Assembly (NCBI GenBank): GCA_036141575.1
Contig: JAYZXF010000003.1
Span: 166,598-230,597, forward strand
DNA from: Pseudomonadota bacterium
GTDB lineage: Bacteria; Pseudomonadota; Alphaproteobacteria; UBA2136; JAPKEQ01
Direction of reading: 5' to 3'
DNA: 64,000 nucleotides
The notes under the pieces: model-generated
Seen by the model: the letters and a program-made list of their open reading frames with translations, nothing else
Told to the model about the DNA's origin: nothing
Databases searched by the model: none
Program-made: the position numbers and the translations under genes
Shown here: positions 12,066 to 46,400 of the stretch, in pieces
How the letters are laid out: every line of letters starts with the position of its first letter
Numbering within the stretch: position 1 is the stretch's first letter

Positions 12066-12132
12066 AAGAGCTCTATTCTTTTATTGTTATCGCCCAAAAG
12101 CATAAGCGAGGCCGAAGCCTCGCTCAAGTGTT

Positions 12133-24932: not shown

Positions 24933-26532
24933 TCATCTCAAGAATACGTTCATCAAACTTTTCTTGCTCTTCACGCATCAGTTCAACAGCATCATGTGTT
25001 GAAAGCTCTTCACGGTAAGCGCGTGGTTTTGTAAGTGCACAGAACACATCACAAGCACCAAGCACACGTGAGAGCATGTTAATTTCAGCTTCTTCAGCAC
25101 CGTATGGGTAGCCAGAACCATCCATACGCTCGTACATTTGTTGAATCACAGGTGCAACAGGGAAATCAAAGTGGATATCCTCAAGCACGCGCATGGCATG
25201 CGGGATGTGCTGTTGAAGTTTGCCAAGCTCAGTCTTTGTGAGCTTACCTTTCTTTGTGAGTACCTCTTGAGGTACAAAGATCTTACCAACACCTGAAAGC
25301 AGCGCACTGTAAAAGAGTGTTGAACGCTCAGGAATGCTCATACCCATGGCGTTAGAAACACGCAGCGCCATGCGCGCCACACGCTCATGGTGACCTGATA
25401 GGTATGGGTCACGAATTTCAACAGCTTTCACAAGTGCCATCATAGCTTGCTCTTGAATACGGACACGCTGACGGTTACGCGTTGCCAGCAGGTGACCAAT
25501 CATCACAAACAGGAAAGCACTCACAAGAATCACAATCATGGTTGTCAGAAGGTAAATGGTACGCTTAAAGCCTGCCAGTGGAGCAAGTGCAATGTCAGAT
25601 AGGTTTTCATAGCCCAGTACAAACGGTGCATTTTCAACAGGTGTAAATGATGCAAACACAGGCTTGTTATCATTCAAGCTTGGCACAGGTCTAAATGTAG
25701 AAAGCTTCGCAACACCAACCATGTGATCAGATACTATTTTATCAGAAACAGGCTTTGCATCGCTCAGGTTATCAACGCTTACAAGCTCAAGACCTTCAGT
25801 ACCAACTTGGTAGAACCCCATACGCTCCCCCTCAGAAGAGAGCTTACCAAGGTCTAGAAGTTCCTTCAGATCATCCCCTACAATAAACTCACTCAGCAGA
25901 AGTGCTGTTACACTTTGACCGCTAGCAGCATCATCCAATGACAGGATTGGCTTCGTCACCGCAACAACAAGGCCAAAATCATTATCTTGTAGTGTTGAGT
26001 ACTGAACTTCAGCCTTTTCAAAGCTGTTCGCAATAATCTCTTTATACTGTGCCCCGACGGTACCTGCTTCGCGGCTACCCATCAGCACGCGACCATCACT
26101 TGCTACAACAAACGCACCGTTCAGACCGTTTTGTTCTGCATAGTCTGTCATGGCTTGTTGCATGTAAGGCAATTGTTGCAAGAGAGACTGCTCAACTGAA
26201 TCATTATTATCAGACAGGATCGCTTCTGAAGCGTAAAGTTGGATCAAGTCAGATGAAACAATATGATCCCCCACACGAGACAAACCTTCAAGCCATGCTT
26301 CCATCACTTCAGCTTTGGCTTCTACTTGAAGTTCAGCGCGTGTCATCACTTCTTTACGAACAACAAACTCACGCTCACCAATAATCATCATAGCGGCCCA
26401 TACACCAATAGAAATAAGAACCAGCATAACAAGCATACCCCAACGCATCAGTGCAGCCATTGGCATGTAAAACGCGTTTTTCTTTGGCATGCCTTTAAGT
26501 GTGATATCAACTTGTGATGATACCTGTGACAT
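24907..26532 (-). CDS. Two-TM membrane protein with a large periplasmic sensor region and a C-terminal degenerate HD-GYP domain
   Basis: TM1 near aa 30-50, ~290-aa periplasmic region, TM2 near aa 325-350, then HD-GYP-like ...GHHERVAR...ALLSGVGKIF...HIPHA...YERMDGSGYPYG...DVFCALT. Lies immediately downstream of the LapG-like protease gene in the same operon. Confidence 0.8.
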   Translation of the reverse strand: MSQVSSQVDITLKGMPKKNAFYMPMAALMRWGMLVMLVLISIGVWAAMMIIGEREFVVRKEVMTRAELQVEAKAEVMEAWLEGLSRVGDHIVSSDLIQLYASEAILSDNNDSVEQSLLQQLPYMQQAMTDYAEQNGLNGAFVVASDGRVLMGSREAGTVGAQYKEIIANSFEKAEVQYSTLQDNDFGLVVAVTKPILSLDDAASGQSVTALLLSEFIVGDDLKELLDLGKLSSEGERMGFYQVGTEGLELVSVDNLSDAKPVSDKIVSDHMVGVAKLSTFRPVPSLNDNKPVFASFTPVENAPFVLGYENLSDIALAPLAGFKRTIYLLTTMIVILVSAFLFVMIGHLLATRNRQRVRIQEQAMMALVKAVEIRDPYLSGHHERVARMALRVSNAMGMSIPERSTLFYSALLSGVGKIFVPQEVLTKKGKLTKTELGKLQQHIPHAMRVLEDIHFDFPVAPVIQQMYERMDGSGYPYGAEEAEINMLSRVLGACDVFCALTKPRAYREELSTHDAVELMREEQEKFDERILEMIEKLAKEG

Positions 26533-26544
26533 AGGGAGTCTCCT

Positions 26545-27201
26545 TTATTTTCGGCCCATTTCTCTTGGCACAATATGCGCCCATCTGGTTGTTTCATTCA
26601 CCGAATAATACGGCAAGTATTGCATAACTTGGCTGTCAGGTAAAACAACATCAAACAAACTATCCATTACATAGAAAGTATCTGCATATTTTACGACAAG
26701 CACTGCGTGCGCAATGTTACGCACAGTATCTTTTACCACAGCAAGGCGCATATCGTCAGGATTAACCCCCAAACGCTTAAGAGTGACATACTTAAAGATG
26801 GCATAATCCTCACAGTCACCAGAATTTGGCATAAACTCTTCAGGCGTTGCCCAGTAATCAGAAATACCGTAATTGGTAATATCCTCAATATAAGGCCACT
26901 GGTTAGCAAACTTATTCACTTCTTGAAGCATAGTTAGCGTATCCTCGCCCTGCAAAGAGCGGATACGACCACGCCATGTGCGCATTTCACCACTTGTACA
27001 TGTGAGAGAATCCTCAAAACACTGGGAAAAATCAGCCTCTTCTTCTTCAAGTTTCTTTAAAACCGTTGTCCATTTTGGGAGAGCGGCAAGGCTCTTAGCT
27101 CTAAACTCAATTGTACCAAATAGGCCATTGCCCGCAAAAGCAGGCAGAGCTCCACACAGGAGCCCTATTGTACATACACCAATCTGAATGGCTTTTCGCA
27201 C
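26545..27201 (-). CDS. lapG: LapG-like periplasmic cysteine protease (BTLCP / DUF920 family)
   Basis: Signal peptide and the GDCEDYAIFKYVTLKRLGV catalytic-Cys block. Downstream His (HAVLVV) and Asp candidates give a Cys-His-Asp triad. Length 218 aa. Confidence 0.8.
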   Translation of the reverse strand: MRKAIQIGVCTIGLLCGALPAFAGNGLFGTIEFRAKSLAALPKWTTVLKKLEEEEADFSQCFEDSLTCTSGEMRTWRGRIRSLQGEDTLTMLQEVNKFANQWPYIEDITNYGISDYWATPEEFMPNSGDCEDYAIFKYVTLKRLGVNPDDMRLAVVKDTVRNIAHAVLVVKYADTFYVMDSLFDVVLPDSQVMQYLPYYSVNETTRWAHIVPREMGRK

Positions 27202-27209
27202 GAATTTAC

Positions 27210-28682
27210 CTATCGTTCACTTAATGCGTTTTGACGCATCTTATTAAATGGTTTCATCATATAATTCCAAACGGTTTTCTTACCCGTTAAAATCTCAACT
27301 GTTGCCACCATACCTGGCATAATTGGGAGCGGCTTATCTTCTGTACCTAGATGGCCCTTATCTGTTCTCACCTGAATTTCATAAAACGGCTCACCTGTCT
27401 TTTCATCCTGCACCGTATCCGCTGCAATTTGAATTAGTTTTGCATCAAGGCTACCGTAAATAGAAGGGTCATATGCTGTAATCTTCACACGCGAATCTTG
27501 GTTCGGACGAAGGAAGGCTACATCCTGCGGACGAATACGCGCCTCAACCACCAAGTTCTCTTCAATCGGAACCACCTCAACAATGTCCACACCAGGCTGA
27601 ATCACCTGCCCTACAGTATTGACAAGCACACGCTTCACCGTACCATGCACAGGAGAGCGCACAGTTGTACGGTCTACCTGATCTTCTACAGCTTTTACGG
27701 CTTCCTGCAAACGAACAAGTTCATCTTTTTTCTCAGTCAGCTCTGTTAGAGACTCTGTACGGTTACGTGCAACCGCCTCTTCCACGCGCTGTTTCGCTTC
27801 TTTAACAGCCGCCTCTCCTCTTGGAACAGCAAGCTTAGCAGCTTCCATTTCACCACGAAGATCGTTCACCTGTCGCTTCAAACGCAGAATATCCACCTTA
27901 GATACAACGCCTTTAGCTTCTAAAGGAATTGTCATTTGCAGTTCTTCATTAGAAATTTGGTATGAACGACGAGACTGGCCTGCTTTTGTCTTTGCTTCAC
28001 GAAGCTCTTGTTCTTTTTGCTCAACCTGACGCGTTAGAATTTCAACAGCAGACTGAATCTCTTCTTTGCGAGAAAGATAAAGCGTATTTTCAGATTCAAT
28101 AATCTGTGGCGCCTCTTCTACAACTTCAGCAGGCCACTTAGGTTTCTCACCTTCAAGCTCAGCATTTAAACGTGCCACAGCCGCCATAAGTGTGTAAATA
28201 CGTGCGCGGCGCTCACCAAGCGTTGACGCAAACCCTGTGTCATCAATACGAATAAGAATATCGCCCTTTTGCACAATATCTCCATTCCCAACAAGAATCT
28301 CTTTAACAATACCACCCTCAAGGTTTTGTACTGTCTGTGTATCACCTGATGGAATCACCTTACCTTGGCCGCGCGTCACTTCATCAAGTTCTGCAAACAT
28401 CGCCCAAGCAATAAAGAAAACAAAAAATGCGACAATTGCCCAGAACAAACGGTTAGCAATGGGGTGCACACCACGCAGTGTCGCTTGACGCACATCATCC
28501 ATAAAGATGCCATCTTCCCAAGCTGCAGGGAAGAACCAGTTCAAGATACCGCGCCATGCCTTTTCAGGACGACCTGCAGGTTTAAGATCTCCGCCCAGCG
28601 TGCTGTTTTTTCTCTCTTTTCGAGAAAGCTTCTTTGGCTTATCGTCCTTCAAAGGTTCATCTGGTATGCGAGATGAGTACAT
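27210..28682 (-). CDS. lapC: Type I secretion membrane fusion protein (HlyD family)
   Basis: N-terminal TM, long coiled coils and a C-terminal beta-barrel/lipoyl-like HlyD domain. Length 490 aa. Confidence 0.9.
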   Translation of the reverse strand: MYSSRIPDEPLKDDKPKKLSRKERKNSTLGGDLKPAGRPEKAWRGILNWFFPAAWEDGIFMDDVRQATLRGVHPIANRLFWAIVAFFVFFIAWAMFAELDEVTRGQGKVIPSGDTQTVQNLEGGIVKEILVGNGDIVQKGDILIRIDDTGFASTLGERRARIYTLMAAVARLNAELEGEKPKWPAEVVEEAPQIIESENTLYLSRKEEIQSAVEILTRQVEQKEQELREAKTKAGQSRRSYQISNEELQMTIPLEAKGVVSKVDILRLKRQVNDLRGEMEAAKLAVPRGEAAVKEAKQRVEEAVARNRTESLTELTEKKDELVRLQEAVKAVEDQVDRTTVRSPVHGTVKRVLVNTVGQVIQPGVDIVEVVPIEENLVVEARIRPQDVAFLRPNQDSRVKITAYDPSIYGSLDAKLIQIAADTVQDEKTGEPFYEIQVRTDKGHLGTEDKPLPIMPGMVATVEILTGKKTVWNYMMKPFNKMRQNALSER

Positions 28683-28695
28683 TTGTTTTCTCTTC

Positions 28696-30897
28696 TTATT
28701 TCTTTAATGTCGTTTTGTTTTTACCAGACAGGCTCTTCAGCACGTCTTCTTTAGGCCCGTCCGCAAGAATACGACCATCTTCCATCACAATGACACGGTC
28801 CACAAGATCAAGCATTGTGTACTTGTGCGTCACAAGAACAACTGTCTTATCCTTAATCGCTTTCTTCAAATGGCCCAGAAGCTTCATTTCTGTACGGTTA
28901 TCCATTTCACTTGTTGGCTCATCAAGCAGAAGAATTGGAGGCTCTTTAAGAATTGCGCGCGCAAGAGAGACCGCCTGACGCTGACCACCAGACAAACTAT
29001 CACCACGTTCGCCCACTGGCATATCAAGGCCCATAGGGTGTTTGCTTGCAAATTCATTCACGCCACTCATTTCTACAGCGGCTTTCAGTTGCTCCTGAGT
29101 TGCATGCGGTGCGCTCAACATAATGTTATGGCGCAGCGTGCCACTAAATAGAATAATGTTTTGTGGCACGTAACCAATATTCTTACGTACTTCCACTGGG
29201 TCTACCTGACGAATCTCAAGATCATCAAACAGAATGCTCCCTTGCGTTGGGTTATAAAGGTTAAGCATCAGACGTAGGAGCGAACTCTTACCAGAACCTG
29301 TACGACCAATCACAGCCACCTTTTCACCCGGCTGAATCTTAAAGCTCATATCCTTCACACTCTCGAGTGGAGAGTTCGGGTAAACAAATGACACATCTTT
29401 AAACTCAACTTGGCCTGTTGCCTCGCCAAGGTAAACAAAGTTTTTACCATCTGGGCGTTCAACTTCCATATCCATAATGCCGTTCAATGTTTCAAGAGAC
29501 TGCATGGCTTGGTTATAGCGCGCATAAAGCGCAACAGCTTGGCTAAGTGGCGCCATTGTACGACCCGCAAGAAGTGTACAAGCCACAAGCGCACCCACAG
29601 ACATGTAACCGCCTTTAATCATAAACACACCAACAACCACAATACCGACTGTCACCATCTGCTGAATAAAGCCAGCAAAGTTTTGACCAATAGACGCAAG
29701 AAGACGCGTACGCTGACCAACACGAGCGACAGCACCAACTGATTGCTCCCAACGAGACTGCATCACACTCTGCATGTTCAGGCTTTTAATCGCTTCAAGG
29801 CCATTAATCGTCTCAACAAGGTGACCATGCTTTGCATCAAGGTCTTGCATCGCCTGTTGAATAATAGCCTTCATAGGAGACTGCACTGTAAAGCTTACAA
29901 ACAGAACAATTGGAATTGCAAATAAAGGAACTAGCGCGACCCAGCCACCAATAATGGCAATCACACCAATAAAGACAAAAATAAACGGTAGATCAATCAG
30001 CGTTGTGAGCGTTGCTGATGTAAAGAAATCTCTAAGAGATTCAAACTCACGCAGCTGGTTTGCAAAGGCACCACTTGATGAACCTTGCTTACCAAGACGA
30101 ATATTAAGAACTTGCTGATACAGTTGACCAGACAGTAAAATATCAGCCCCTCGCCCTGCTGTATCAATAAAGTAACCTCGCAGCACCTTTAATATAAAGT
30201 CAAACACGTAAGCTGTACCAATACCAAGCGCAAGAACAGTTAGTGTTTCCATTGCGTTGTTTGGTACCACGCGGTCATAAACGTTCATCACAAAGAGCGG
30301 TGAGACCACTGCAATTAAGTTAATCACCACAGCAGCAATGGCCACTTGGAAGTAAATCCAACGAAACTGCCAAAGCGTATCTCTAAACCAGCGTTCACCC
30401 GATCTAAATACGTCCGTCACAAAATCATGTACAGCTGTTGGGCGCGCCATAATCATTGTACCAGAGTACACAGGCGCAAAGTCTTCAAGGCTTGCAAAGC
30501 GCTTTTCTTCACCACTTACAGGGTTTACCAGTACAACACTACCGTGATCACCCATTTCTTTAAGCACAAACGCAGGGCCAACCTCGTCACCCTCACCCTT
30601 TAAGATCACAAGAGCTGGAAGCACATGACGTGAAAGCTCTTCAAGCTTTCTATCAATCACACGCGCGTTTAAACCAGCGCGCTTTGCAGCACGTACAAAC
30701 AAGAATGGCGTAAGCTTGTTATTTTGGAGAGGAAGTCCGACCGTGAGAGATTCCGCATTGAAAAGCTTATTATAATGCTTCACAAAATACATAAGTCCTG
30801 CCAGTAGATAATCTGGCGCTTGAACCTTTTCAGCTTCTTCTTGCTTCACATCAATAGAACCCAGAGCTTCTTGTTGCTCTAACGTAGCGTCTGTCAC
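28696..30897 (-). CDS. lapB: Type I secretion ABC transporter ATPase/permease with an N-terminal C39-like (Cys-less) domain
   Basis: The first ~150 aa have a peptidase-C39-like fold but no cysteine. Six-TM ABC domain, Walker A GRTGSGKSS, signature LSGGQRQ, Walker B ILLLDE. Length 733 aa. Confidence 0.9.
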   Translation of the reverse strand: MTDATLEQQEALGSIDVKQEEAEKVQAPDYLLAGLMYFVKHYNKLFNAESLTVGLPLQNNKLTPFLFVRAAKRAGLNARVIDRKLEELSRHVLPALVILKGEGDEVGPAFVLKEMGDHGSVVLVNPVSGEEKRFASLEDFAPVYSGTMIMARPTAVHDFVTDVFRSGERWFRDTLWQFRWIYFQVAIAAVVINLIAVVSPLFVMNVYDRVVPNNAMETLTVLALGIGTAYVFDFILKVLRGYFIDTAGRGADILLSGQLYQQVLNIRLGKQGSSSGAFANQLREFESLRDFFTSATLTTLIDLPFIFVFIGVIAIIGGWVALVPLFAIPIVLFVSFTVQSPMKAIIQQAMQDLDAKHGHLVETINGLEAIKSLNMQSVMQSRWEQSVGAVARVGQRTRLLASIGQNFAGFIQQMVTVGIVVVGVFMIKGGYMSVGALVACTLLAGRTMAPLSQAVALYARYNQAMQSLETLNGIMDMEVERPDGKNFVYLGEATGQVEFKDVSFVYPNSPLESVKDMSFKIQPGEKVAVIGRTGSGKSSLLRLMLNLYNPTQGSILFDDLEIRQVDPVEVRKNIGYVPQNIILFSGTLRHNIMLSAPHATQEQLKAAVEMSGVNEFASKHPMGLDMPVGERGDSLSGGQRQAVSLARAILKEPPILLLDEPTSEMDNRTEMKLLGHLKKAIKDKTVVLVTHKYTMLDLVDRVIVMEDGRILADGPKEDVLKSLSGKNKTTLKK

Positions 30898-31141: not shown

Positions 31142-32467
31142 ATGAAATTTACAGTTAAAGCAATGCTTGCAGGTGCTGGTCTTATGATCATGAGCCCTGC
31201 TGGCTACACTGAAACTCTTGGCCAAGCTGTCCAGCTGGCTCTACAAAACCACCCAGATATTAAAATTGCAAAAAACCAGAAGCACTCTATTGAGCACGAA
31301 TGGCGCATTGCTAAAGCTGGCTACCTGCCAAGCCTAGACGTAGCAGCAGGCTACGGTGTTGAACGCAGCGAGAACAACACAACACGTAACCGTGCAGGCC
31401 GAAACGGTACAAATGGTGATGCACACCGTACACTGAACCGTTACGAGTCAAGCGTAACAGCGAGCCAAATGCTTTTTGATGGTTACGAAACAAGCAGCGA
31501 AATCTGCCAACAGAAAGAACGCTTCAACTCTGCACGTTACAACGTAATGGAAGTTGAAGAGACTGTTTCTCTTGCTGCTGTTGAAGCATACATTGAAGTT
31601 CTTCGTAACATGGAGCTTGTTGCTATCTCTAAAGATAACTACAACACGCACCTACGTTACCTGAAACAAATTAAACAACGCGCTGAAGGTGGCCGCGGTA
31701 ACATGGCAGACGTTCGTCAGGCCGACGGTCGTGTAGCTCTTATCCGTGCAAACCTACAAGCAGCTGAAGGTGACCTTGCTAACGCGAAGGCAAACTACCT
31801 AGAAGTTGTTGGTAAACTACCAGAAGGCGTGAGCCTGCCAACTCCTCCAGTTGAGGTTCTACCATCTACTATTGATGATGCAATCGCTCGCGCTATTGCA
31901 AACAACCCAGCTCTTGGTAGTGCACAGCACGACATTAAAGCAGCTAAAGCAGCGAAACAAACTGCTAAAGCAAGCTTCTACCCTCGTTTTGATGCTGAAC
32001 TAGAAGCATCACACGATCACAACCTAAGCGGCCAAAGCGAAAAAGGGACTGACCGTAACTACCAAGCCATGGTACGTATGCGTTACAACCTTTACAGCGG
32101 TGGTGCTGACCGTGCCCGTGTACGTGAGCGCGCAAGCCGTGTTCAAGAAGCCCGTGAATCTCTAGAAAGAGATCGCCGTCTCGTTGAAGAAGGCATGTAT
32201 GTTGCTTGGAACAACCTAGAAACAGCAAGAACGCGTATCCAACCACTTAGTCAACACGTGATGGCATCTGATGCAACACGTAAGGCTTACAGTGAGCAGT
32301 TTGATATTGGTCAGCGTAGCTTGCTTGACCTTCTCGACTCTGAGATTGAGTTCTACGGTGCACGTAGCGCACTTGTAAACGCTAAATACGCACTTGATTT
32401 TGCAGTGTACAACGTACTTGCACAATCAGGTGAGCTTGCTAACACTGTTGGTGGGCACCGCTCTTAA
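31142..32467 (+). CDS. lapE: TolC-family outer membrane channel of the T1SS
   Basis: Signal peptide, two OEP repeat halves. Length 441 aa. Transcribed divergently from the ABC/MFP operon. Confidence 0.85.
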   Translation: MKFTVKAMLAGAGLMIMSPAGYTETLGQAVQLALQNHPDIKIAKNQKHSIEHEWRIAKAGYLPSLDVAAGYGVERSENNTTRNRAGRNGTNGDAHRTLNRYESSVTASQMLFDGYETSSEICQQKERFNSARYNVMEVEETVSLAAVEAYIEVLRNMELVAISKDNYNTHLRYLKQIKQRAEGGRGNMADVRQADGRVALIRANLQAAEGDLANAKANYLEVVGKLPEGVSLPTPPVEVLPSTIDDAIARAIANNPALGSAQHDIKAAKAAKQTAKASFYPRFDAELEASHDHNLSGQSEKGTDRNYQAMVRMRYNLYSGGADRARVRERASRVQEARESLERDRRLVEEGMYVAWNNLETARTRIQPLSQHVMASDATRKAYSEQFDIGQRSLLDLLDSEIEFYGARSALVNAKYALDFAVYNVLAQSGELANTVGGHRS

Positions 32468-32749: not shown

Positions 32750-35700
32750 ATGTCAACGACACAAAACCAAGAGAATCAAGCGCTTGAAACAACTGAAACA
32801 GGCACAAAGCTCTTTGCCGGACTACCTGAAGAACAGGCTGCTGCGCAGACGAAAAATGTTCTGACAGTTTCTGCTCCGAAAGGAAACTCTAGCGAAGCAT
32901 ACACTGTTGAACCAGGCGATGTCATTAAACTGACAGGTTTTAATCCATCTGATGCAACTTTCAAAGTTGACGGTAACAACCTGATCATCTCTGTAGAGGG
33001 GCAACCTGATATTTACCTTCTTGATTTTGCAAAGCTTCAAGGCACAGATGCTGGTAACACAACATTTATCGAACTTACTGAAGGCGCAACAGTTGATGCA
33101 AACAGCCTCCTTGCACAGTTGACGCCAGAAGCTACAAACGGCAACGGTACTCAAGTGGCAGCCTCAGATGAAAACATTAACGAGATTGAGCCGGCAGCCG
33201 GTCCAGCCGCTGGTGCTGCTGGTGGTGCAGGTTTCACCCCTCCTCCAGTTGCAAATGATTCTTTCTCTGCCAATACAGTTAACGCCGAAGTGATCGGCGA
33301 TTTCCTCGTTGATAGCGAGTTTGGCCAAGCTGATGAACGCCTACTAGAAACACCTAACCGTGCTCCAGATGCTGTGGATGACAACGGCGGTAACGCTGAA
33401 GGTGATGCACACACAGTTAAAGAAGATGCTGTACCAAACACAGTTTCAGGCAACGTACTTGCCAACGATACAGACCCAGATGGTGATACGCTGAGTGTAG
33501 CAAACCCAGGGACTTACACACTGAACTACGGTACACTTACAATTAACGTAGACGGTACGTACACATACGCCCTAGACAACAGCAACCCAACTGTAAACGC
33601 TCTAGATGATGGTGACACGCTCACAGATTCATTTACATACCGCGCAACAGATGGTCAGCTTCAGTCTCCAGCAAACCTAAACATTCGTATCCTAGGTACA
33701 AATGATGGTCCTGAGCTAAACAATGATGTAGACCCTAACGACAATAGTCTTTCTATTAAAGAAGATGCAGTACCAAACTTCACATCTGGTAACGTACTTG
33801 ATAACGACGTTGACCCAGATGGCGATGTGCTCACGGTTGTAAACCCAGGCACGTACACCCTGAACTACGGTACACTTGTGATTAATGCTGACGGTACATA
33901 CACGTACACACTCGATAACAGCAACCCAACTGTAGACGCCCTAGACAACGGCGATACACTATCAGATAGCTTCACATATGAAGCGACTGATGGCGACCTG
34001 AACGATACAGCGGTTCTAACAATCACAATTCACGGTACAAATGACGCTCCTGCTCTTCAAGATGACGTAAACAGCATTTTTGAAAACGCAACACCTGACA
34101 CAGTAACAGGTAACGTACTTGCGAACGATACAGATGTTGAAGGTGATGCAATCACTGTTTCAAACCCTGGTATCTATGTTCTTAACTACGGTACACTTAC
34201 ACTGAATGGTGACGGCTCATACTCATACCAGCTTGATAACAGCAACCCTACTGTGAACAACATGAAAGCTGGCGATAGCATTCAAGATGCCTTCATTTAC
34301 CGCGCTACTGATGGTAAGGATAGCTCAACAGCGAATCTAACAATCACAATTCACGGCACAAATGACGGCCCAGTTGCAAACGATGATGTTGCAGCAACAG
34401 ACGAAGATACGCCGATTACAATTCCAGCAAGCACAATCCTTGCGAACGACTACGAGCTTGAAGGTGACACATTTAACATTACTGCTGTGAATGTAAGGTT
34501 TGGTGGCGGTACAGCCGTACTGAACGCAGATGGTAGCGTAACATACACACCACTGCATAACTATAACGGCCCTGCTCAGTTGGAATATACAATTACAGAT
34601 ACTGATGGCCTATCGGATACTGCCGTGATTGATATCAATGTGATTTCAATTAACGATGTACCGCTAGCAGAAGATGACAGCGCTGTGACTCATGAAGATG
34701 TGCCTGTACGCATTTCTAACGCTGAAATTCTGCGTAATGACTCTGACCCTGAAGGTGACGCACTCACAATTACAACGGTTCGCGTTGTATCTGGTGGTGG
34801 TAGTGCTATTCTTCAACCCAACGGTGACGTGGTTTACACACCTGCGCTAAACTACAATGGCCCTGCGGTTCTTGAGTACGTAGTAACGGATGGAAACGGC
34901 GACTTTGATAGTGCCTTCATTAACATTGATGTCCTTCCTGTAAACGATGCAATTTCAGCACTTGATGACTACGCTGAAACACCAGAAGACACTCCGATCA
35001 CAATTCCTTCAGATAATATTCTTGCGAACGATTACGATCCTGAAGGTGACCCGCTTACAATTACAGCAGTGAGCGTTGTATCAGGCGGAGGTAGTGTTAC
35101 CCTTAACGCTGACGGCAGTGTAACGTACACGCCAGCGCCAAACTACAGCGGCCCTGCGGTTCTTGAGTACACAGTTGATGACGGCAATGGCAGTACAGAT
35201 ACTGCTTTGATCAACATCACAGTTACACCAGAGAATGATCCAGATGCAGTTGATGACTTCGCAACAACACGAGAAGACACAACAATTGTAATCCCGAATG
35301 CAACAATCCTTGCAAACGATGTGGATGATATGGGTCTTGCTCTTACAATTACAGAAGTACGCCTTGTAAGCGGCGGCGGTAGCGTAACGCTACTCGCAAA
35401 CGGTGATGTATCTTACACACCAGCGCCAAACTACAATGGCCCAGTTGTTCTTGAGTACACAATTCAAGATCCAAACGGTAACGAAGACAGTGCAAACATC
35501 TACATTGCAGTCACACCTGTGAACGACGGCCCTGTTGCTGTTGATGACTTTGCTGTGATGAATGAAGATTCTGTTCTTGTCATTCCAGAAGGCACCCTAC
35601 TGGCCAATGATACTGACCCAGAGGGCGACCCTCTTACAGTAACTCATGTCACTGTTGTAAGCGGTGGCGGCACAGCGACTGTAGATGCTTCAGGTAACGT

Positions 35701-38700
35701 AACATACGTACCAGCCCTCAACTACAACGGCCCTGTTGTTCTTGAATACACAATTAACGACGGCAACGGCGGTACTGATACTGCGCTTGTTAACATTGAC
35801 GTTCTGCCTGTAAACGATGCGCCAGTGGCAAACGATGACGCTGCAGCAACAGATGAAGACACGCCAATCACGATTTCAAACGCTGATATCCTATCAAATG
35901 ACTTTGATGTAGATGGCGATGTGATCACAATTACTGGCGTACGCATGGTAACAGGCCAAGGTACAGCGGTACTCAACGCAGACGGTAGCGTAACTTACAC
36001 GCCTACTGCCAATTACCACGGCCCTGCTGAAATTGAGTACACAATTGAAGATGAGCACGGTGCAACGGATACAGCAATTATCCGCGTAACAGTAAGATCT
36101 GTAAATGATGGTCCACAGGCAAACGATGATGCCTTCACAACGCCAGAAGATACAGCAATTACAATGACATCTGCTCAGATCCTATCAAACGATACGGACC
36201 CTGAAGGCGATCCTCTATCAATCACAAGCGTGATTGTAGTAAGCGGTGGCGGTACAGCGGTACTGAATGCTGATGGTAGCGTAACGTACACACCAGCGGC
36301 TGACTACAACGGCCCTGCGGTTCTTGAGTACGTTATGACTGATGGCACAGCTTCTGATAGTGCCTTCATCAACATTAACGTAACGCCTGTTAATGATGCG
36401 CCTGATGCAAACGATGATAGCTTCACAACTGCTGAAGATACTGCACTGACAATTCCAGCTGCAAACATCCTTGCAAACGACACAGACCCAGATGGTGACA
36501 CACTCACAATTACTGGCGTAAGCGTTCTTTCAGGTGGTGGTACAGCGGTACTAAACGCTGATGGTAGCGTAACTTACACGCCAGCAGCTGATTACCACGG
36601 CCCTGCGGTTCTTGAGTACAGCATCTCTGATGGTAACGGTGGTACAGATACAGCACGTATCAATATCACAGTAACGCCTGAGAACGACCCTGATGCAGTT
36701 GATGACTTCACTAGCACTAATGAAGACACAACTGTAATCATCCCGAACGCAACAATCCTTGCGAACGATGTGGATGACATGGGCATGACACTCACAATTA
36801 CCAATGTACGCGTTGTAAGCGGCGGCGGTACAGTACAGCTCCTAGCAAACGGTGATGTATCTTACACCCCTGCTCAAGGTTACAACGGCTCAGCAACGCT
36901 TGAGTACACAATCACAGACCCGGATGGCAACACTGATAGTGCAAACATCTTTGTGGCAATCAACCCTGTGAACGATGGCCCAACAGCTGTAAACGACGTA
37001 GCAGTCATGAACGAAGACACTGTTCTTGTGATTCCTGAAGGCACACTGCTTGCTAATGACAGTGACCCTGACGGTGACCCACTGAACGTAACAGGTGTAA
37101 CTGTTGTAAGCGGTGGCGGTACAGCAACAATTGATTCTGCAGGTAACGTAACGTACGTACCAGCCCTCAACTACAACGGTCCAGTTGTCCTTGAGTACAG
37201 CATCTCTGATGGTAACGGCGGTACAGATACGGCGCTTGTCAACATTACTGTAAACCCAGTCAATGATGATCCAAACGCTCGTAACGATAACTACACAACT
37301 GCCGAAGACACATCTGTTGGCCTAGACCTTCTAGCGAACGATACAGATGTAGATGGTGACACACTAACAATTACACACATTGCTGGTGTAGCCCTAACAG
37401 GTGGCGCTCAGTCAATTGATGTAGGTAACGGTCGCGTAGAAATTGCTGCAAACGGTTCTATGCGCTTCCACCCTGATGCAAACTGGAACGGTACTGAAAC
37501 ATTCAACTACCAAGTTTCAGATGGTAACGGTGGTACAGACACTGCAACAGTTCGTGTAAACGTAGACGCTCGTAACGATGGCCCTGATGCCCGTAACGAT
37601 AACTACACAACAAACGAAGATACGTCAGTGAACCTGAACCTTCTGGCAAACGATACTGACCCAGATGGCGATACGCTCACAATTACACATATTGATGGTG
37701 TAGCCCTAACAGGTAACGCGCAAACAATTGATGTGGGTAACGGTCGCGTAATCATTGCGTCTAACGGCACAATGCGCTTCCAACCGGATGCCAGCTGGAA
37801 TGGAACTGAGGCCTTCAGCTACCAGATCTCTGATGGCAACGGTGGCAGCGATACTGCAACTGTACGTGTAACAGTGAGAGCTGTAAACGACGGTCCAGAT
37901 GCTCGCAACGATAACTACACAACAGATGAAGATGTCTCAGTGAACCTGAACCTTCTGGCAAATGATACTGACCCTGAAGGCGACACACTCCGCATCACGC
38001 ACATTGATGGCACAGCCCTAACAGGTAATGCACAAACAATTGATGTGGGTAATGGCCGTGTCATTATCTCATCAACAGGTGCTATGCGCTTTGAGCCAGA
38101 TGCTAACTGGAATGGTATTGAAACATTCAACTACACAATTACAGACGGTAATGGTGGCACAGACACTGCCCGCGTAACTGTTGAAGTATGTGCAGTAAAC
38201 GACGGCCCAGATGCTCGCAACGATAACTACACAACAGATGAAGACACTGCGGTGAATATCAATCTGCTTGCGAACGACACAGATATCGATGGCGATACAC
38301 TCCGCATCACACATATTGCTGGCACAGCCCTAACTGGCGGCGCACAAACAATTGATGTGGGTAACGGTCGTGTCATTATCTCGTCAACGGGTGCTATGCG
38401 CTTCCAACCGGATAACGGCTGGTTTGGTACTGAAACATTCAACTACCGCATTACAGATGGTAACGGTGGCTCTGATACAGCAACAGTAAGAGTTGTTGTA
38501 CGCGAAGGCAACAACGGCCCTGATGCGAAGAATGATAGCTACACAACAAACGAAGATACGTCAGTAAACCTGAACCTTCTAGCGAATGATACTGACCCTG
38601 ACGGCGATACGCTTCGTATCACTCATATTGAAGGTGTAAGACTCACAGGCAGTGCACAAACAATTGATGTGGGTAACGGTCGTGTCATCATTACTTCTGC

Positions 38701-40243
38701 TGGTGCTATGCGCTTCCAGCCTGATGCAAACTGGAATGGTACTGAAACATTTAGCTACCGAATCTCTGATGGTAATGGGGGTGTAGACTCTGCACGCGTA
38801 ACTATTAATGTTAAACCAGTAAACGATGGCCCTGATGCGAAGAATGATAGCTTCACAATCAATGAAGACCAAACCCTTTACCTCAACGGTGGATCAAAGC
38901 TTCTTGCGAATGACCGTGATATTGATGGTGATAGTCTAAATATTACGCACATCAACGGTGTAAGACTGACTGGCGGCAACCAAAACATTGATGTAGGACG
39001 CGGTACAGTGGTTGTTGGCAGTGATGGCAGCATGCAGTTCCGTCCAGATCGTAACTGGAACGGCACAGAGACATTCACTTACAGAATCTCTGATGGCAAC
39101 GGCGGCAGTGATACAGCAACTGTAACAGTCAAAGTAAGACCAGTAAATGATGGTCCGAACGCACGTAACGACTCTGTATCTGTAAACGAGAACCAGTCTA
39201 TTGCGATTAGCGTTCTAAACAACGATACAGACCCTGATGGCGATGCATTACACATCACACGTATTGTAAGTGGTCCAAACTTTGGTAGCGCTTACGTATC
39301 AGGCGGACGTATCATTTACACAGCAGGCTCTGTAACATCAGATCGCACGGTTACTTTCAGATATGAAATCTCTGATGGTCACGGTGGTACTGATATTGCA
39401 ACCGTAACAGTAAACGTACGTAACACTTGGAACCCTGGCGGTGACGGCGGCGGTGACGGCGGCGGTGATTGCCCACTTATCATTGACCTAGACGGTGACG
39501 GCCTTGAGCTTATCGCTCTAGAAGACTCAAACGCTATGTTTGATGTTGATGGTGACGGACAAGCAGAGCACACAGCATGGGCTTCATCTGATGATGGTAT
39601 CCTTGCGATGGACTGGAACGGTGACGGCATCATTAATGATGTAACTGAAGTCTTTGGTAACAGCCTACAAGACGGTTTCACTGAGCTTATTGAGCTTGAT
39701 GACAACGGTGATGGCGTCATTAACCAAGATGACAGCCTGTTCTCTAGCCTACAAGTATGGCAGGACTACAACGGTGACGGTATCTCTGATGCTGGTGAGC
39801 TGAGCAGCCTTGCTGACCACGGTATCACGTCACTTGGTGCAGTTGGCAATGAAAACCCAATGGTGATCAACGGCCAAACAATTACGCACACAAGTAGTGT
39901 TGAGTACGCTGATGGAACATCACGTGACATCTACAGTGTATGGTTCCAGAACGAGAACACAAGTTCAAGTGACCATAACTACGATGAGATTGACCTTACA
40001 GGTGACTCTCTAGTTGGCTTCAGCGTATCACTTGACGATGTTCTGAGTACGGCTTCAAACACGCTTGTGATCTCTGGTGATGATGGTGATGCGGTGACAA
40101 CAACTGAGTTCACTGAACGTAACGATAACGTAACGATTGGTGACCAGACATACGCGTCATTCACAGACAGCAACCACACAGGAACAATCCTGATTGAGCT
40201 TGGCCTGACTGTAAACGGCGAGACAATGACAGACGTTGTTTAA
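32750..40243 (+). CDS. lapA: Giant LapA-like type I secreted repeat adhesin, 2497 aa
   Basis: Strong gaggagg RBS. N-terminal beta-rich region followed by the EPAAGPAAGAAGGAG tract. More than 20 tandem ~100-aa VCBS/cadherin-like repeats (..ANDTDPDGD.L....V..G.....DG.V.YTP..NYNGP....Y...DG.G..D.A...I.V.PVND.P). C-terminal Asp/Gly-rich Ca-binding region (GGDGGGDGGGD, DLDGDG, DVDGDG, DDNGDG) and a non-cleaved C-terminal secretion signal. Confidence 0.85.
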   Translation: MSTTQNQENQALETTETGTKLFAGLPEEQAAAQTKNVLTVSAPKGNSSEAYTVEPGDVIKLTGFNPSDATFKVDGNNLIISVEGQPDIYLLDFAKLQGTDAGNTTFIELTEGATVDANSLLAQLTPEATNGNGTQVAASDENINEIEPAAGPAAGAAGGAGFTPPPVANDSFSANTVNAEVIGDFLVDSEFGQADERLLETPNRAPDAVDDNGGNAEGDAHTVKEDAVPNTVSGNVLANDTDPDGDTLSVANPGTYTLNYGTLTINVDGTYTYALDNSNPTVNALDDGDTLTDSFTYRATDGQLQSPANLNIRILGTNDGPELNNDVDPNDNSLSIKEDAVPNFTSGNVLDNDVDPDGDVLTVVNPGTYTLNYGTLVINADGTYTYTLDNSNPTVDALDNGDTLSDSFTYEATDGDLNDTAVLTITIHGTNDAPALQDDVNSIFENATPDTVTGNVLANDTDVEGDAITVSNPGIYVLNYGTLTLNGDGSYSYQLDNSNPTVNNMKAGDSIQDAFIYRATDGKDSSTANLTITIHGTNDGPVANDDVAATDEDTPITIPASTILANDYELEGDTFNITAVNVRFGGGTAVLNADGSVTYTPLHNYNGPAQLEYTITDTDGLSDTAVIDINVISINDVPLAEDDSAVTHEDVPVRISNAEILRNDSDPEGDALTITTVRVVSGGGSAILQPNGDVVYTPALNYNGPAVLEYVVTDGNGDFDSAFINIDVLPVNDAISALDDYAETPEDTPITIPSDNILANDYDPEGDPLTITAVSVVSGGGSVTLNADGSVTYTPAPNYSGPAVLEYTVDDGNGSTDTALINITVTPENDPDAVDDFATTREDTTIVIPNATILANDVDDMGLALTITEVRLVSGGGSVTLLANGDVSYTPAPNYNGPVVLEYTIQDPNGNEDSANIYIAVTPVNDGPVAVDDFAVMNEDSVLVIPEGTLLANDTDPEGDPLTVTHVTVVSGGGTATVDASGNVTYVPALNYNGPVVLEYTINDGNGGTDTALVNIDVLPVNDAPVANDDAAATDEDTPITISNADILSNDFDVDGDVITITGVRMVTGQGTAVLNADGSVTYTPTANYHGPAEIEYTIEDEHGATDTAIIRVTVRSVNDGPQANDDAFTTPEDTAITMTSAQILSNDTDPEGDPLSITSVIVVSGGGTAVLNADGSVTYTPAADYNGPAVLEYVMTDGTASDSAFININVTPVNDAPDANDDSFTTAEDTALTIPAANILANDTDPDGDTLTITGVSVLSGGGTAVLNADGSVTYTPAADYHGPAVLEYSISDGNGGTDTARINITVTPENDPDAVDDFTSTNEDTTVIIPNATILANDVDDMGMTLTITNVRVVSGGGTVQLLANGDVSYTPAQGYNGSATLEYTITDPDGNTDSANIFVAINPVNDGPTAVNDVAVMNEDTVLVIPEGTLLANDSDPDGDPLNVTGVTVVSGGGTATIDSAGNVTYVPALNYNGPVVLEYSISDGNGGTDTALVNITVNPVNDDPNARNDNYTTAEDTSVGLDLLANDTDVDGDTLTITHIAGVALTGGAQSIDVGNGRVEIAANGSMRFHPDANWNGTETFNYQVSDGNGGTDTATVRVNVDARNDGPDARNDNYTTNEDTSVNLNLLANDTDPDGDTLTITHIDGVALTGNAQTIDVGNGRVIIASNGTMRFQPDASWNGTEAFSYQISDGNGGSDTATVRVTVRAVNDGPDARNDNYTTDEDVSVNLNLLANDTDPEGDTLRITHIDGTALTGNAQTIDVGNGRVIISSTGAMRFEPDANWNGIETFNYTITDGNGGTDTARVTVEVCAVNDGPDARNDNYTTDEDTAVNINLLANDTDIDGDTLRITHIAGTALTGGAQTIDVGNGRVIISSTGAMRFQPDNGWFGTETFNYRITDGNGGSDTATVRVVVREGNNGPDAKNDSYTTNEDTSVNLNLLANDTDPDGDTLRITHIEGVRLTGSAQTIDVGNGRVIITSAGAMRFQPDANWNGTETFSYRISDGNGGVDSARVTINVKPVNDGPDAKNDSFTINEDQTLYLNGGSKLLANDRDIDGDSLNITHINGVRLTGGNQNIDVGRGTVVVGSDGSMQFRPDRNWNGTETFTYRISDGNGGSDTATVTVKVRPVNDGPNARNDSVSVNENQSIAISVLNNDTDPDGDALHITRIVSGPNFGSAYVSGGRIIYTAGSVTSDRTVTFRYEISDGHGGTDIATVTVNVRNTWNPGGDGGGDGGGDCPLIIDLDGDGLELIALEDSNAMFDVDGDGQAEHTAWASSDDGILAMDWNGDGIINDVTEVFGNSLQDGFTELIELDDNGDGVINQDDSLFSSLQVWQDYNGDGISDAGELSSLADHGITSLGAVGNENPMVINGQTITHTSSVEYADGTSRDIYSVWFQNENTSSSDHNYDEIDLTGDSLVGFSVSLDDVLSTASNTLVISGDDGDAVTTTEFTERNDNVTIGDQTYASFTDSNHTGTILIELGLTVNGETMTDVV

Positions 40244-40399: not shown

Positions 40400-41389
40400 A
40401 TGACGACGCAAATTACCCCCATCCCTCAATGGGTTTTCAATGCAAAAATGCCAGACGGTTACGACCCAAAGGCCAACTTTTCCCAAATGCAAGCCACATG
40501 GGACAGCATCCCTCGTGAAAAAGGTGAGCTGGGTCAGCGTCTGCAAATCTACGTGATTGCGTATTTTATGGGCATCACAAAGATTGAAATCTACAACACA
40601 GACAGCCTGAACTACCTTGCAGACAAAGGCATTCTGGATAGCAAGCGCTATCAGCCAACCCCTGCAACGCAGAACTTTCTGTACCACATGGCCACTGAAC
40701 ATCCGGAAAACATTCCCAACAGTGTCTTTGACCTTGAGTTCTACAAAGAACAAAAGCCCAAAGTCGCGCGCTGGCTGGAAAAGAAAATTCGCCGCCACAA
40801 TGGCGAATACACCTCTTTGGAAAAGCTGGGCCAAGCCCTACTTGCCCTGCCTGGTGCAACGGTTCGCTTTGTGAAGGACCGTGTATCCATCACAGGCCAG
40901 TTTAAACTGCTCAAAAATGAGTCAGGCAAGCTGATTGGTGTGGAACACCCTGAAGTTAAGGTGGCCACACCTGAAATCAACACAAGTGAGAATGGCAAAA
41001 AGTCTCTCTCGTGGCCTACCTTGGATAAAGGTGACAACCTGCTAGCGCCTCCTCCTGAACCCACAGACATTCCCGAACCTGGTCCTGAATTTGGGCTAGA
41101 AGAAAAGAATGAGGGCAAGGAAGAAGCTCCCACTCAGGACCCTGAAGCCACGCCGCACGCTGACGACACCACTCCGGTGAAGGAAGAGCCTGAAGCGGAA
41201 AAGAAGTCTGGCGAAGAAGCTCCTCCGAAAACCAAGCGCAAGCCGCGCAAATCGGCAGCCAGCAAAAAAACTGCTGGGAAAGGCCCTAAACGCGGCCCTG
41301 ATGGACGTTTTCTCAAAAAAGAAGAAACTCCTCCTGAACACCACTTCCGCAGCACTGGAGGCGGCAGTGGCGGCGGAACAGGCTGCTAA
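40400..41389 (+). CDS. Hypothetical protein: ~200-aa globular N-domain plus an acidic-then-Lys/Pro-rich histone-like tail ending GGGSGGGTGC. CTG-rich codon usage is atypical for this window
   Basis: Good RBS ggagga. 329 aa. No signal peptide. Tail ...PPKTKRKPRKSAASKKTAGKGPKRG. Confidence 0.5.
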   Translation: MTTQITPIPQWVFNAKMPDGYDPKANFSQMQATWDSIPREKGELGQRLQIYVIAYFMGITKIEIYNTDSLNYLADKGILDSKRYQPTPATQNFLYHMATEHPENIPNSVFDLEFYKEQKPKVARWLEKKIRRHNGEYTSLEKLGQALLALPGATVRFVKDRVSITGQFKLLKNESGKLIGVEHPEVKVATPEINTSENGKKSLSWPTLDKGDNLLAPPPEPTDIPEPGPEFGLEEKNEGKEEAPTQDPEATPHADDTTPVKEEPEAEKKSGEEAPPKTKRKPRKSAASKKTAGKGPKRGPDGRFLKKEETPPEHHFRSTGGGSGGGTGC

Positions 41390-43421: not shown

Positions 43422-46400
43422 ATGGTCACAAAGACGCCAGACGATATTGTAATTGAGAGTAATGAGATCACGACAGAAGGCGAGACTGTCAATGTATCCT
43501 CTCAATCAGAATCTCCAAAGCAAGAAGAGAACGAAGAGATTGCAGCTCTAGAAGATGGAGCCCCTACTGAAGACATTGCAACGTTTGATGCATCTGAAAT
43601 CCAAGAAACTGCCTCCCTTAATGACGCCCTCCCTGGCGTTAACTTCATGCGTAAACTATACGGTACAGACTATACAAGTGACCCTACAGGTGCTCGTAGC
43701 TATTATTACGACTTTGCAAATGAAAGTGCTGGCGTTGGTGAAAGCCAGTTTTATCTATCGTTCTACAGTACATTTGATACATCATACTTTGGATTTACCG
43801 GCACATCTGGCGATGATGTGATTAACCGTATTACCGATGATCCACAATTTAGTGATATCCCTTACATCCTAAACGGTCTTGAAGGTAACGATAACATTAC
43901 CGGTTCTAACGCTGATAATATGCTGATTGGTGGCGCAGACGATGATATCCTGAACGGTAACGGTGGTGATGATGTCTTCTACTATGAAGGACATAACAAC
44001 GGTATTGATAACATTAATGGTGGTGTAGGTGAAGATGCCATCCTTGGTAGCTCTGGTGATGATACCATTGGTGTACAAACTCTTAATGATTCACGATCTA
44101 TTGAAGTTATTGATGGTGGTGACGGCATTGATACGATCCGTGGCGGCGATACAGGCACAGATAACTTTGACCTCCGTAATATAGAAGTTCGTAACATTGA
44201 GTTTTACGATCTAGGTGATGGCGGCACAGATACATTCTACGGTACATCTGACGCAGATACGATTCTCACTGGTTCTGGTACAAAACGTATTTTTGGTGAA
44301 GATGGTGACGATACTATTATTCTCAAGACCTCTCACACAAGTGGTGAAAGTAATGAGTATGATGGTGGCGCAGGCTTTGACCAAATCATTACACAAGACC
44401 CTACACAAAACTTTACTCTCCGCATGCGCGAGCTTCGCCCTGAAGATAGTATTGAAAGCATTGACCTTGGTTCTGGTACAAATGTTATTGAAGGCACGTC
44501 AGGCGGTAACCGTCTAGATTTCTCTACAACGGCTCTTAATGGTGTCAGCCTTATTGATGGCCTTGGCGGTTCGGATACGATTATTGGTACATCTGGCAAT
44601 GATGTAATTCGCGGTGGCGAAGGCTCGGATACTATGTCTGGTGGGGATGGTGATGATATCTTCCTTGTAGAAGGTATTGACCCAAGCACATCTGCACGTG
44701 ATGACTTTGATGGAGGTGCAGGTTTTGACCAAATTATTGGTACTGCGGGTAATGAACTTGTTCGTGTCCGCTTCCTAAATGCTGCGGATAGCATTGAAGT
44801 TCTTGATCTGGGTGCAGGTTATGACGTTCTAGAAACACGTGGTAGCAGTAATATTGACTTATCAGGTATGACAGTACTTGGCCTAGACTTTATTAATGGT
44901 GGTTCAAGCTCTGATAATATTACAGCCACGCAAGGCGATGACTTTATTCAAGGTAATGGTGGTAATGATACACTGAATGGTGCTGGCGGTGTCAACACGG
45001 CTGTCTTTAATGGTGTATTCACAGACTATGAAATCACAGATAACGGTGATGGTACATTTACTGTACTTGATCTCAACACAGCTGATGGTAATGATGGCCG
45101 CGATACACTGATTAACATTAACTACGCACAGTTCTCTAACTACACAGAGACACTGATCGCCCCTAACCTGCCTCCAGTAGCCGTAGATGACAACATCACG
45201 CTAGATGAAGACACTGAAGTTACGTTTAACCCAACGGGTAACGATACAGACCCGGGTGATACAATTACCCTTGTTGCAATTGATACACCTGTCAACGGTA
45301 ACCTGATTGACAATGGTGATGGTACATTCACATATGAGCCATTTAATAACTTCAACGGCTCAGAGTCGATTTCATACACAATTGAAGATGCTGCGGGCCA
45401 ACAAGCGACAGGTACGATTAACTTTAACGTCACACCTGTAAATGATGCCCCTGATGCACGCAACAACGGCACAACGATTAATGAAGATGAAACGGCTACG
45501 ATTGACGTTCTAGGTAACGATAGAGATGTAGATGGTGACACGCTTTCTATTGTGAGCTTTGACCAGCCTGCAAATGGTAGTGTTGTTCTAAACCCAGACG
45601 GTACATTTACATACACGCCAAGTGGTAACTATTTTGGTGTAGATAGCTTTGACTACACAATTACAGACGGAGAGTTCCAAGATACTGCCACTGTAAACAT
45701 TACAATTAATGCCGCCAATGATGCCCCAGATACAGTAGAAGATAACATTACTGTAGAAGAAGACAGTTTCATTACATTTGATGTACTGGCTAATGACAGC
45801 GATGTTGATGGCGATACGATTACACTTGAAAGCTTCACGCTTCCAACTGAGGGTACACTGGTACAAAACCCAGATGGTACATTTACGTACACCCCTGCCC
45901 CAGACTTTAACGGTACCGATAGTTTTACGTACACAGTAACGGATGGCACGGCCTCTCGCGTAGAAAATGTAAATATTACGGTTGATCCAGAAAACGATAC
46001 GCCAATTACACTGTCTGACTCTGCAACAACACAAGAAGATAACAGTGTTGTTATTGATGTTCTTGCCAATGACAGTGACCCTGACGGCGACGCGCTCACA
46101 GTTTCATCTGTGACAGATGGTGCCAACGGTACAGTTGCCATCAACCCAGAAGGTACGGTGACATACACACCAAATGCTGACTTCCACGGTAACGATAGCT
46201 TCACATACATTGCCAATGACGGTAATGGCGGTACAGTAACTGAAACAGTTACTGTACAAGTAAACCCAGAAAATGACGCGCCAGTCACTGTTGTTGATGA
46301 TATCAGCGTGAATGAAGATGAAAGCATCAATATCCAGGTTCTTCTGAACGATACAGATGTAGACGGAGACACGCTTTCAATTGATAGCTTTACGCAGCCT

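Follow-up and report, generated by a model that had tools for sequence, protein, structure and literature searches.

A predicted Dvh-type release site behind the N-terminal retention domain of a giant type I-secreted adhesin from an uncultured, probably alphaproteobacterial genome

How might a giant adhesin be held on the cell that exports it and then let go? The question is raised by a 64,000-nucleotide stretch of contig JAYZXF010000003.1 (positions 166,598 to 230,597, forward strand; here called the window) from a Pseudomonadota metagenome-assembled genome (MAG), in which a very large adhesin gene lies beside genes for a type I secretion system (T1SS) and for a bacterial transglutaminase-like cysteine proteinase (BTLCP). 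Early in the adhesin lies a tract with repeated di-alanines that the initial annotation proposed as a cleavage site of the LapG type. We consider it likely that a T1SS-anchored adhesin is released at this tract by a Lap-like switch of the Dvh type, with the cut predicted at A149/A150. Gene content, homologies, motif conservation, and alignment with validated sites carry this reading. The elements of the adhesin that enter the argument first are as follows.

32750-40243, + strand: giant T1SS adhesin, 2497 aa (MEC9291283.1)
33188-33232, + strand: reported tract EPAAGPAAGAAGGAG, aa 147-161, containing the conserved site, a second PAAG, and GAAG
33185-33205, + strand: family-conserved heptad I146-E-P-A-A-G-P152, from conservation in 19 members
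33194-33199, + strand: predicted scissile di-alanine A149/A150, aligned to DvhA A106/A107 and to the DVU1545 site
33203-33214, + strand: second PAAG, aa 152-155, in a variable Gly/Ala linker
33212-33223, + strand: GAAG, aa 155-158, in the same variable Gly/Ala linker

The ATG of the adhesin gene is preceded, 7 nt upstream, by GAGGAGG, which resembles a Shine-Dalgarno ribosome binding site; the NCBI deposit MEC9291283.1 names the product only as an "Ig-like domain-containing protein" (immunoglobulin-like). The tract had been described as PAAG twice plus GAAG at aa 147 to 161 (nt 33188-33232), and the translation reproduces this exactly. A scan of all 2497 residues for [T/A/P]AA[G/V] returned just two matches, both of them the PAAGs of the tract (aa 148 and 152); the length of the adhesin (>1000 aa) and the N-terminal position of the motif agree with the length and motif criteria of Smith et al. 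(10.1101/198937). Shuffles of the whole protein gave 0.035 [T/A/P]AA[G/V] per 100 aa and a probability of 0.0015 for two or more in a given 100 aa; when the Ala-rich N terminus alone (aa 1-211) was shuffled, the probabilities were 0.16 for at least one motif and 0.011 for at least two. Seen in one sequence, the motif is thus weakly above chance, and its real support therefore has to come from conservation among relatives.

Relatives of the N terminus were collected by searching 1.84 billion representatives exhaustively with phmmer, which gave 17 proteins at an E value of <=1e-3. Word-index homology searches with the N terminus alone or as a profile gave 1 and 3 proteins, the candidates being swamped by low-complexity words, and further members were taken from loci retrieved via the BTLCP, via the adhesins, and via the DvhD-like protein in GTDB genomes. 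Where the module is N-terminal, every phmmer match shows the same succession: a beta-rich domain, a helix of the form "xAxxLLxxL", and then [I/V]-[E/Q]-P-A-A-G-P. When 11 N termini (27-76% identity) were aligned, P148 and A149 were invariant and A150 and G151 nearly so, the highest conservation of the region. Among 19 members, the first four positions of the heptad are I or V, E or Q, P, and A (19/19 at each); position 5 is A in 17/19 and E in 2, position 6 is G in 18/19 and A in 1, and position 7 is P in 15/19. PAAG itself stands at the first-motif position in 16 of the 19, and the heptad is the best conserved element of the N terminus.

The same comparison bears on an alternative that we judge unlikely, namely, that the BTLCP cuts the second PAAG (A153/A154) or the GAAG (A156/A157), or several di-alanines redundantly, so that the whole tract is the site. 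The second PAAG fits the [T/A/P]AA[G/V] consensus and is kept in the window, L001, and L002/P0122. These are just the close relatives, however, and in more distant members the position reads PAGG, PANG, PTAG, PASG, PERA, or PQSG; the GAAG is not conserved and has already been replaced by PTSA in L001. Because the second PAAG and the GAAG vary in this way, the functional element is best sought in the first PAAG, the remaining tract being the start of a Gly/Ala linker. A weak 9-nt periodicity at 33209-33232 (GCTGGTGCT, 2.7 copies) lies beneath the tract part AGAAGGAG and fits local slippage or duplication generating a variable linker of this kind.

Alignment with experimentally defined substrates points to the same bond. 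In the Dvh system of Desulfovibrio vulgaris Hildenborough, the adhesins are DvhA (DVU1012) and DVU1545, the protease is DvhG, and the receptor for cyclic di-GMP (c-di-GMP) is DvhD (PMC10990149; PMC13090378). DvhG cuts the DvhA and DVU1545 sites in vitro, EGTA blocks the reaction, and an AA-to-RR exchange largely abolishes it; the validated DvhA bond is A106/A107 (PMC13090378). The supplement of that study gives the sequences around the sites of DvhA (...GDAFLTAFNAELLPAAGPGAGGGAGSGG), DVU1545 (...YDFLAAIDAELLPAAGPGAGGGSGAGGG), MapA (...DDPTKTAEATAAGPGATGG), CraA (...VDPPTALEAAAAGAGAGG), and FrhA (...ADPTALDDLAPAAGGLQG). With hhalign, the family profile matched DvhA (probability 96.6%, E 5e-10, window protein aa 36-165) and DVU1545 (96.2%, E 2.4e-9), and in both alignments PAAGP fell on PAAGP, which places the validated bonds on the first motif and not on the second. 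The conserved hydrophobic/acidic P4-P3 pair [IV][EQ] likewise precedes the first motif alone; it matches LL in DvhA. Sequences truncated before LLPAAG still gave E values of 8.7e-8 and 2.5e-7 (probability 94-97% with or without the motif), as opposed to 0.14-0.66 for six shuffles and one reversal. The homology of the retention domain thus survives removal of the motif and is independent of its low complexity. Residues of DvhA that are important for DvhG docking, I85 and L90 in the retention domain and F95 and F99 in the targeting helix (PMC13090378), align with hydrophobic L108, V115, L120, and L124 of the window adhesin.

The region in front of and behind the heptad can be divided as follows.

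32849-33097, + strand: retention domain, beta-rich core, aa 34-116 (AlphaFold2 [AF2] confidence, pLDDT, 75-88; hhalign to DvhA/DVU1545)
33098-33121, + strand: predicted targeting helix ANSLLAQL, aa 117-124 (AF2; hhalign to DvhA)
33122-33184, + strand: variable spacer, predicted to be disordered, aa 125-145, ~18 aa longer than that of DvhA
33200-33364, + strand: predicted disordered segment of ~55 aa (aa 151-205) before the first Ig-like repeat (low AF2 pLDDT)

The AF2 model, built with a 12-sequence alignment, predicts with moderate confidence that aa 34-126 fold into a core (block pLDDT 75-88) of eight strands and the helix 117-124. Disorder is predicted for residues 1-33 and 128-140, and pLDDT is <50 over most of 155-196. 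The beta-rich N-terminal module of the initial annotation is borne out by the model, with a folded part of aa 34-126 and not of ~140 aa, a length that was approximate. Taken as a prediction, the model fits a folded plug, an exposed site in a flexible region, and a threadable linker of ~55 residues. By the threading model proposed for LapA (10.1101/198937), a disordered segment of this length behind the cut site would be long enough to thread the TolC channel.

A cleavage site calls for a protease, and the genes next to the adhesin, which form a divergent cluster with it, offer one together with a secretion system and a receptor.

24907-26532, - strand: DvhD-like c-di-GMP receptor, 541 aa, with transmembrane segment (TM), periplasmic dCache, TM, and degenerate HD-GYP (HD_5; DvhD homology)
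26545-27201, - strand: DvhG-type BTLCP, 218 aa, with signal peptide (Pfam Peptidase_C93, E 4e-19)
27210-28682, - strand: HlyD-family T1SS adaptor (curated-family matches)
28696-30897, - strand: LssB-type T1SS ABC transporter with inactive C39-like domain (TIGR03375; no Cys)
31142-32467, + strand: TolC-family outer-membrane channel (curated-family matches)

The BTLCP has the triad Cys130-His165-Asp180 and the Ca ligands Asp129/Glu131, in the segments GDCEDY, AHAVL, and VMDSL. It shares 48% identity with the DvhG BTLCP domain (E 8e-61; DvhG sequence from the PMC13090378 supplement), matches Pseudomonas fluorescens LapG (4U65) at E 6e-21, and scores 97 bits on the NCBIfam LapG equivalog, against a cutoff of 320. 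The ABC transporter scores 890 bits on TIGR03375 (cutoff 693), and its HlyD and TolC partners exceed the cutoffs of TIGR01843 and TIGR01844.

The closest solved structures to the receptor are those of DvhD, 9RBZ and 9RC0 (E ~1e-35; 9RBZ, E 8e-36). Residues 61-251 match the DvhD dCache structure 9RC2 (E 1e-6), Pfam dCache_1 matches weakly (E 0.003), and TM segments at ~24-53 and ~324-352 flank this domain. In the HD-GYP domain, HD has become SG and HH has become MY, with GYP kept; six of the eight canonical c-di-GMP contacts of DvhD are identical and one is conservative, DvhD K582 being replaced by Leu. The protein thus reads as a catalytically degenerate HD-GYP protein that keeps the predicted c-di-GMP contacts. 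No cytoplasmic PAS domain separates TM2 from the HD-GYP domain (the 9RC0 alignment begins at chain position 118); TM2 is followed at once by a stalk and then, from aa 367, by HD-GYP. Homologues of the receptor in the clade are all 541-590 aa long and PAS-less (e.g., L001 7781-9406, L005 2042-3808, and L007 2377-4002); more distant homologues have GHP in place of GYP. LapD-type domains (LapD_MoxY_N, GGDEF, EAL) were not found in the flanking genes scanned, and the neighbor of the BTLCP is the dCache/HD-GYP protein.

On the evidence of its protein sequences, then, the system is of the Dvh type and not a classical LapA/LapG/LapD system, because the BTLCP is closest to DvhG, its partner is a dCache/HD-GYP homologue of DvhD, and the retention domain is homologous to that of DvhA/DVU1545. 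The initial annotation had placed a LapG-type site behind a retention module: the placement is upheld by conservation and by alignment on validated sites, whereas the type is Dvh and the first PAAG alone is conserved in the family. Its choice of the co-encoded BTLCP as the predicted protease gains support from the DvhG homology and from the gene order in relatives. A GTDB scan with the DvhD-like protein gave 8 hits, which lie on 7 distinct contigs; every one comes from a MAG, mostly with the label Alphaproteobacteria. The genes follow one and the same order in all 8 hits and in four metagenome loci, and the adhesins there bear the N-terminal module; the order adhesin-TolC / ABC-HlyD-BTLCP-DvhD-like is kept in 12/12 distinct loci that reach that far, with a module-bearing adhesin in every one (hmmsearch E 1e-37 to 1e-73).

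Of the distinct loci whose sequence continues beyond the receptor gene, 9 of 11 have genes of the pyruvate dehydrogenase E1 type (pdh) adjoining the cluster.

22891-24932, - strand: pyruvate-dehydrogenase-type E1 genes beside the cluster (also in L001, L005, L008-L012, and L014)

This recurrent E1 neighborhood, despite receptor identities of 32-35% among the MAGs, suggests that the cluster has been inherited vertically and has kept its place in the chromosome.

Several results weigh against a release site at A149/A150. Composition alone yields a motif in ~15% of cases. Two adhesins have PAEG at the first-motif position (L005, adhesin 10001-14383; L015, adhesin ORF 1519-2, minus strand), and one protein, P0124 (L006 3945-4859), has PAAA. 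The PAEG loci L005 and L015 both still encode an adjoining BTLCP; either the family does not strictly require the di-alanine (Glu being tolerated at P1'), or PAEG/PAAA adhesins are not cleaved and released. Relative to DvhA, hhalign places an insertion of ~18 aa between helix and site, and with this longer spacer the compact docking of DvhA on DvhG may not hold here. The adhesin lacks the classical "DP" element of LapG substrates, as does DvhA. Curated models are silent as well: the first 230 aa have no match in Pfam and NCBIfam at E <= 1, and scans of all 12 alignment members against the same libraries gave no curated retention-module match of any meaning. A Foldseek search of the PDB with the AF2 model found no significant solved structure at a threshold of E <= 1e-3; the beta-rolls of CyaA RTX (repeats-in-toxin) block V came closest, with E values between 1e-3 and 1e-2.

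Some of these points would suit a tract that is a mere flexible Gly/Ala/Pro linker into TolC, with no proteolytic release and with a BTLCP that has another substrate or none. Such a linker could well be compositionally simple and variable, as the downstream tract is, with its weak 9-nt periodicity; the chance motifs in composition-matched shuffles and the PAEG/PAAA variants also agree with it. A mere linker would not, however, be expected to keep P-A invariant and a heptad near constant at 27-35% overall identity. Its first motif aligns with validated sites, a BTLCP is present in the same locus wherever the locus extends far enough, and the retention module and motif occur in no other protein of the window. 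We therefore give a nonproteolytic linker little credence. That the Gly-Gly/Gly-Ala pairs are instead a double-glycine leader site for a C39 peptidase domain of the ABC transporter is hardly credible, for although the tract has GG and GA pairs and the transporter matches Peptidase_C39 (E 8e-8), its first 170 residues hold no cysteine, so that the C39-like domain is inactive and no processing peptidase (the missing catalytic Cys rules such processing out), conservation does not extend to the GG/GA part of the tract, and adhesin-type T1SS transporters are reported to lack bacteriocin-processing residues (10.1101/198937).

Release at the first PAAG remains the preferred reading, and it suggests the following course of events. 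From the known systems we infer cleavage itself, the exact bond, its Ca dependence, and the sense in which c-di-GMP controls it. The adhesin would be exported C terminus first via ABC, HlyD, and TolC until its N-terminal beta domain (aa 34-116), presumably too folded for the channel, remained as a periplasmic plug, with the disordered ~55 aa beyond residue 151 threading TolC. With helix 117-124 and the retention domain as its docking surface, the periplasmic BTLCP (26545-27201) would cut A149/A150 of I-E-P-A/A-G-P in a Ca-dependent reaction, freeing the adhesin from the cell. The receptor (24907-26532) would bind c-di-GMP by its inactive HD-GYP domain and restrain the protease at high c-di-GMP.

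The body of the adhesin consists of ~20 tandem-95/cadherin-like repeats. The RTX motif Dx[L/I]x4GxDx[L/I]xGGx3D has 0 matches in its 2497 aa, and so do GGxGxD cores. Five DxDxDG loops lie near the C terminus (aa ~2245-2340), and the C-terminal tail (last ~90 aa; ...LVISGDDGDAV...ILIELGLTVNGETMTDVV; also given as ELGLTVNGETMTDVV) is common to family members; curated T1SS-signal models did not match this tail. P0124 (304 aa) is a "mini" member of the family, in which the retention module and IEPAAAP are joined to the C-terminal secretion tail with no extender repeats between; its gene lies beside those for TolC and the ABC transporter. In P0123 (865 aa), P0135 (405 aa), and P0133, which are otherwise unrelated proteins, a retention-domain-like unit is repeated internally, in 2-9 tandem copies that lie between RTX blocks, with the repeat unit …NVLQLTGYN.S.L….DGNNLILDF..GD.V.L.DFF…FADGT….

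A second giant gene lies farther downstream in the window.

43422-52514, + strand: second giant protein, 3030 aa, with two DUF4114 domains and ~16 tandem-95 repeats

It had been said to lack a comparable motif, and this holds: its single PAAG (aa 1381) lies within an extender repeat, there is none near the N terminus, and the family hidden Markov model finds no retention module in it. We rejected it as a second BTLCP substrate on these grounds. RTX blocks are present near both of its ends (aa ~200-430 and ~2650-2940), with six RTX motifs (Dx[L/I]x4GxDx[L/I]xGGx3D) and 19 GGxGxD cores. The gene is flanked by genes of fatty-acid metabolism (thiolase, MaoC, acyl-CoA dehydrogenase) and not by its own T1SS. 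Two ORFs near the giant genes, 40400-41389 (+ strand, 329 aa) and 53780-54421 (+ strand, 213 aa), have no Pfam/NCBIfam match.

What does the locus add? The literature already describes BTLCP release sites, retention modules, and the DvhDG variant, and the known mechanism is unchanged. Specific to this locus and its relatives are the PAS-less receptor, the non-RTX adhesin, a retention family without a curated model, and the natural PAEG/PAAA variants. The adhesin gene gains a functional annotation, namely, a predicted bond (A149/A150), a cognate protease, and a c-di-GMP receptor. The Dvh design, characterized only in Desulfovibrio, would extend to uncultured Alphaproteobacteria, in which the receptor is shorter and the adhesin lacks RTX motifs; motif-plus-RTX screens for LapG substrates (as in 10.1101/198937) would miss adhesins of this class. 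A bolder and rather doubtful proposal is that the window belongs to a distinct, so far undescribed alphaproteobacterial Dvh branch, defined by a PAS-less receptor, a non-RTX cadherin-repeat adhesin, and a retention family outside Pfam/NCBIfam. If this were true, and should PAEG/PAAA be uncleavable or need a co-adapted protease, the branch would be a natural experiment on how a c-di-GMP signal crosses the membrane without a PAS relay and on the P1' specificity of BTLCPs.

Among known systems, there is some resemblance to the BapA prefix (PF22783). Sub-threshold BapA_N matches were seen for the N terminus of DvhA (E 9e-5) and for the internal repeat unit of the P0123/P0135/P0133 type (E 1.4e-4), which had been retrieved by the window N terminus; they cover the "G-N-D-L-v-i ... 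v-l-l-d-F" strands. The window N terminus itself has no BapA_N match at E <= 1, and only one of 12 family members reaches E 0.22. BapA-type prefixes are not known to carry a BTLCP site.

The Lap system (P. fluorescens LapA/MapA, LapG, and LapD; Vibrio cholerae FrhA and CraA; Bordetella BrtA; Legionella RtxA) is a further relative. Shared with it are the N-terminal retention module, the helix, and a [T/A/P]AA[G/V] for a Ca-dependent periplasmic BTLCP, cleavage in the window adhesin being predicted; an LssB/LapB-type T1SS whose C39-like domain is inactive; and, probably, control by c-di-GMP. LapA-type adhesins are secreted C terminus first and stall on a folded N-terminal domain, by transporters reported to lack bacteriocin-processing residues (10.1101/198937). 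In contrast to Lap, no LapD was found in the flanking genes scanned (no LapD_MoxY_N, GGDEF, or EAL), the BTLCP falls below the LapG equivalog cutoff (97 versus 320 bits), and the adhesin has neither the "DP" element nor RTX motifs nor an NCBIfam/Pfam retention-module match at its N terminus.

The Dvh system is the nearest, with some differences of detail. The window receptor, unlike DvhD, has no cytoplasmic PAS domain and does not keep DvhD K582 and R569. The window BTLCP has a signal peptide where DvhG has a TM helix and a 180-aa linker, the signal-peptide state being reported as the commoner among DvhG orthologues (PMC10990149; PMC13090378). The window adhesin has ~18 extra aa between targeting helix and site relative to DvhA, and it differs from the Dvh adhesins in having no RTX repeats, von Willebrand factor domain, or serralysin-like domain. 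Here the host is no Desulfovibrio but an uncultured organism, known from a MAG and probably alphaproteobacterial; Supplementary Data 1 of PMC13090378 lists alphaproteobacterial DvhD homologues from Kiloniella, Sneathiella, Fodinicurvata, Pelagibius, and Oceanibacterium. What the two systems have in common is their plan: a T1SS, a BTLCP, and a dCache/HD-GYP c-di-GMP receptor replacing LapD; a protease 48% identical to DvhG in which the C-H-D triad and the Ca site are present; a receptor homologous to DvhD in both its dCache and its degenerate HD-GYP domain; an adhesin whose retention domain is homologous to that of DvhA/DVU1545, with a hydrophobic targeting helix behind it; and, as in DvhA (LLPAAGPGAGGGAG), P-A-A-G-P followed by a Gly/Ala-rich run, with no "DP" element in either.

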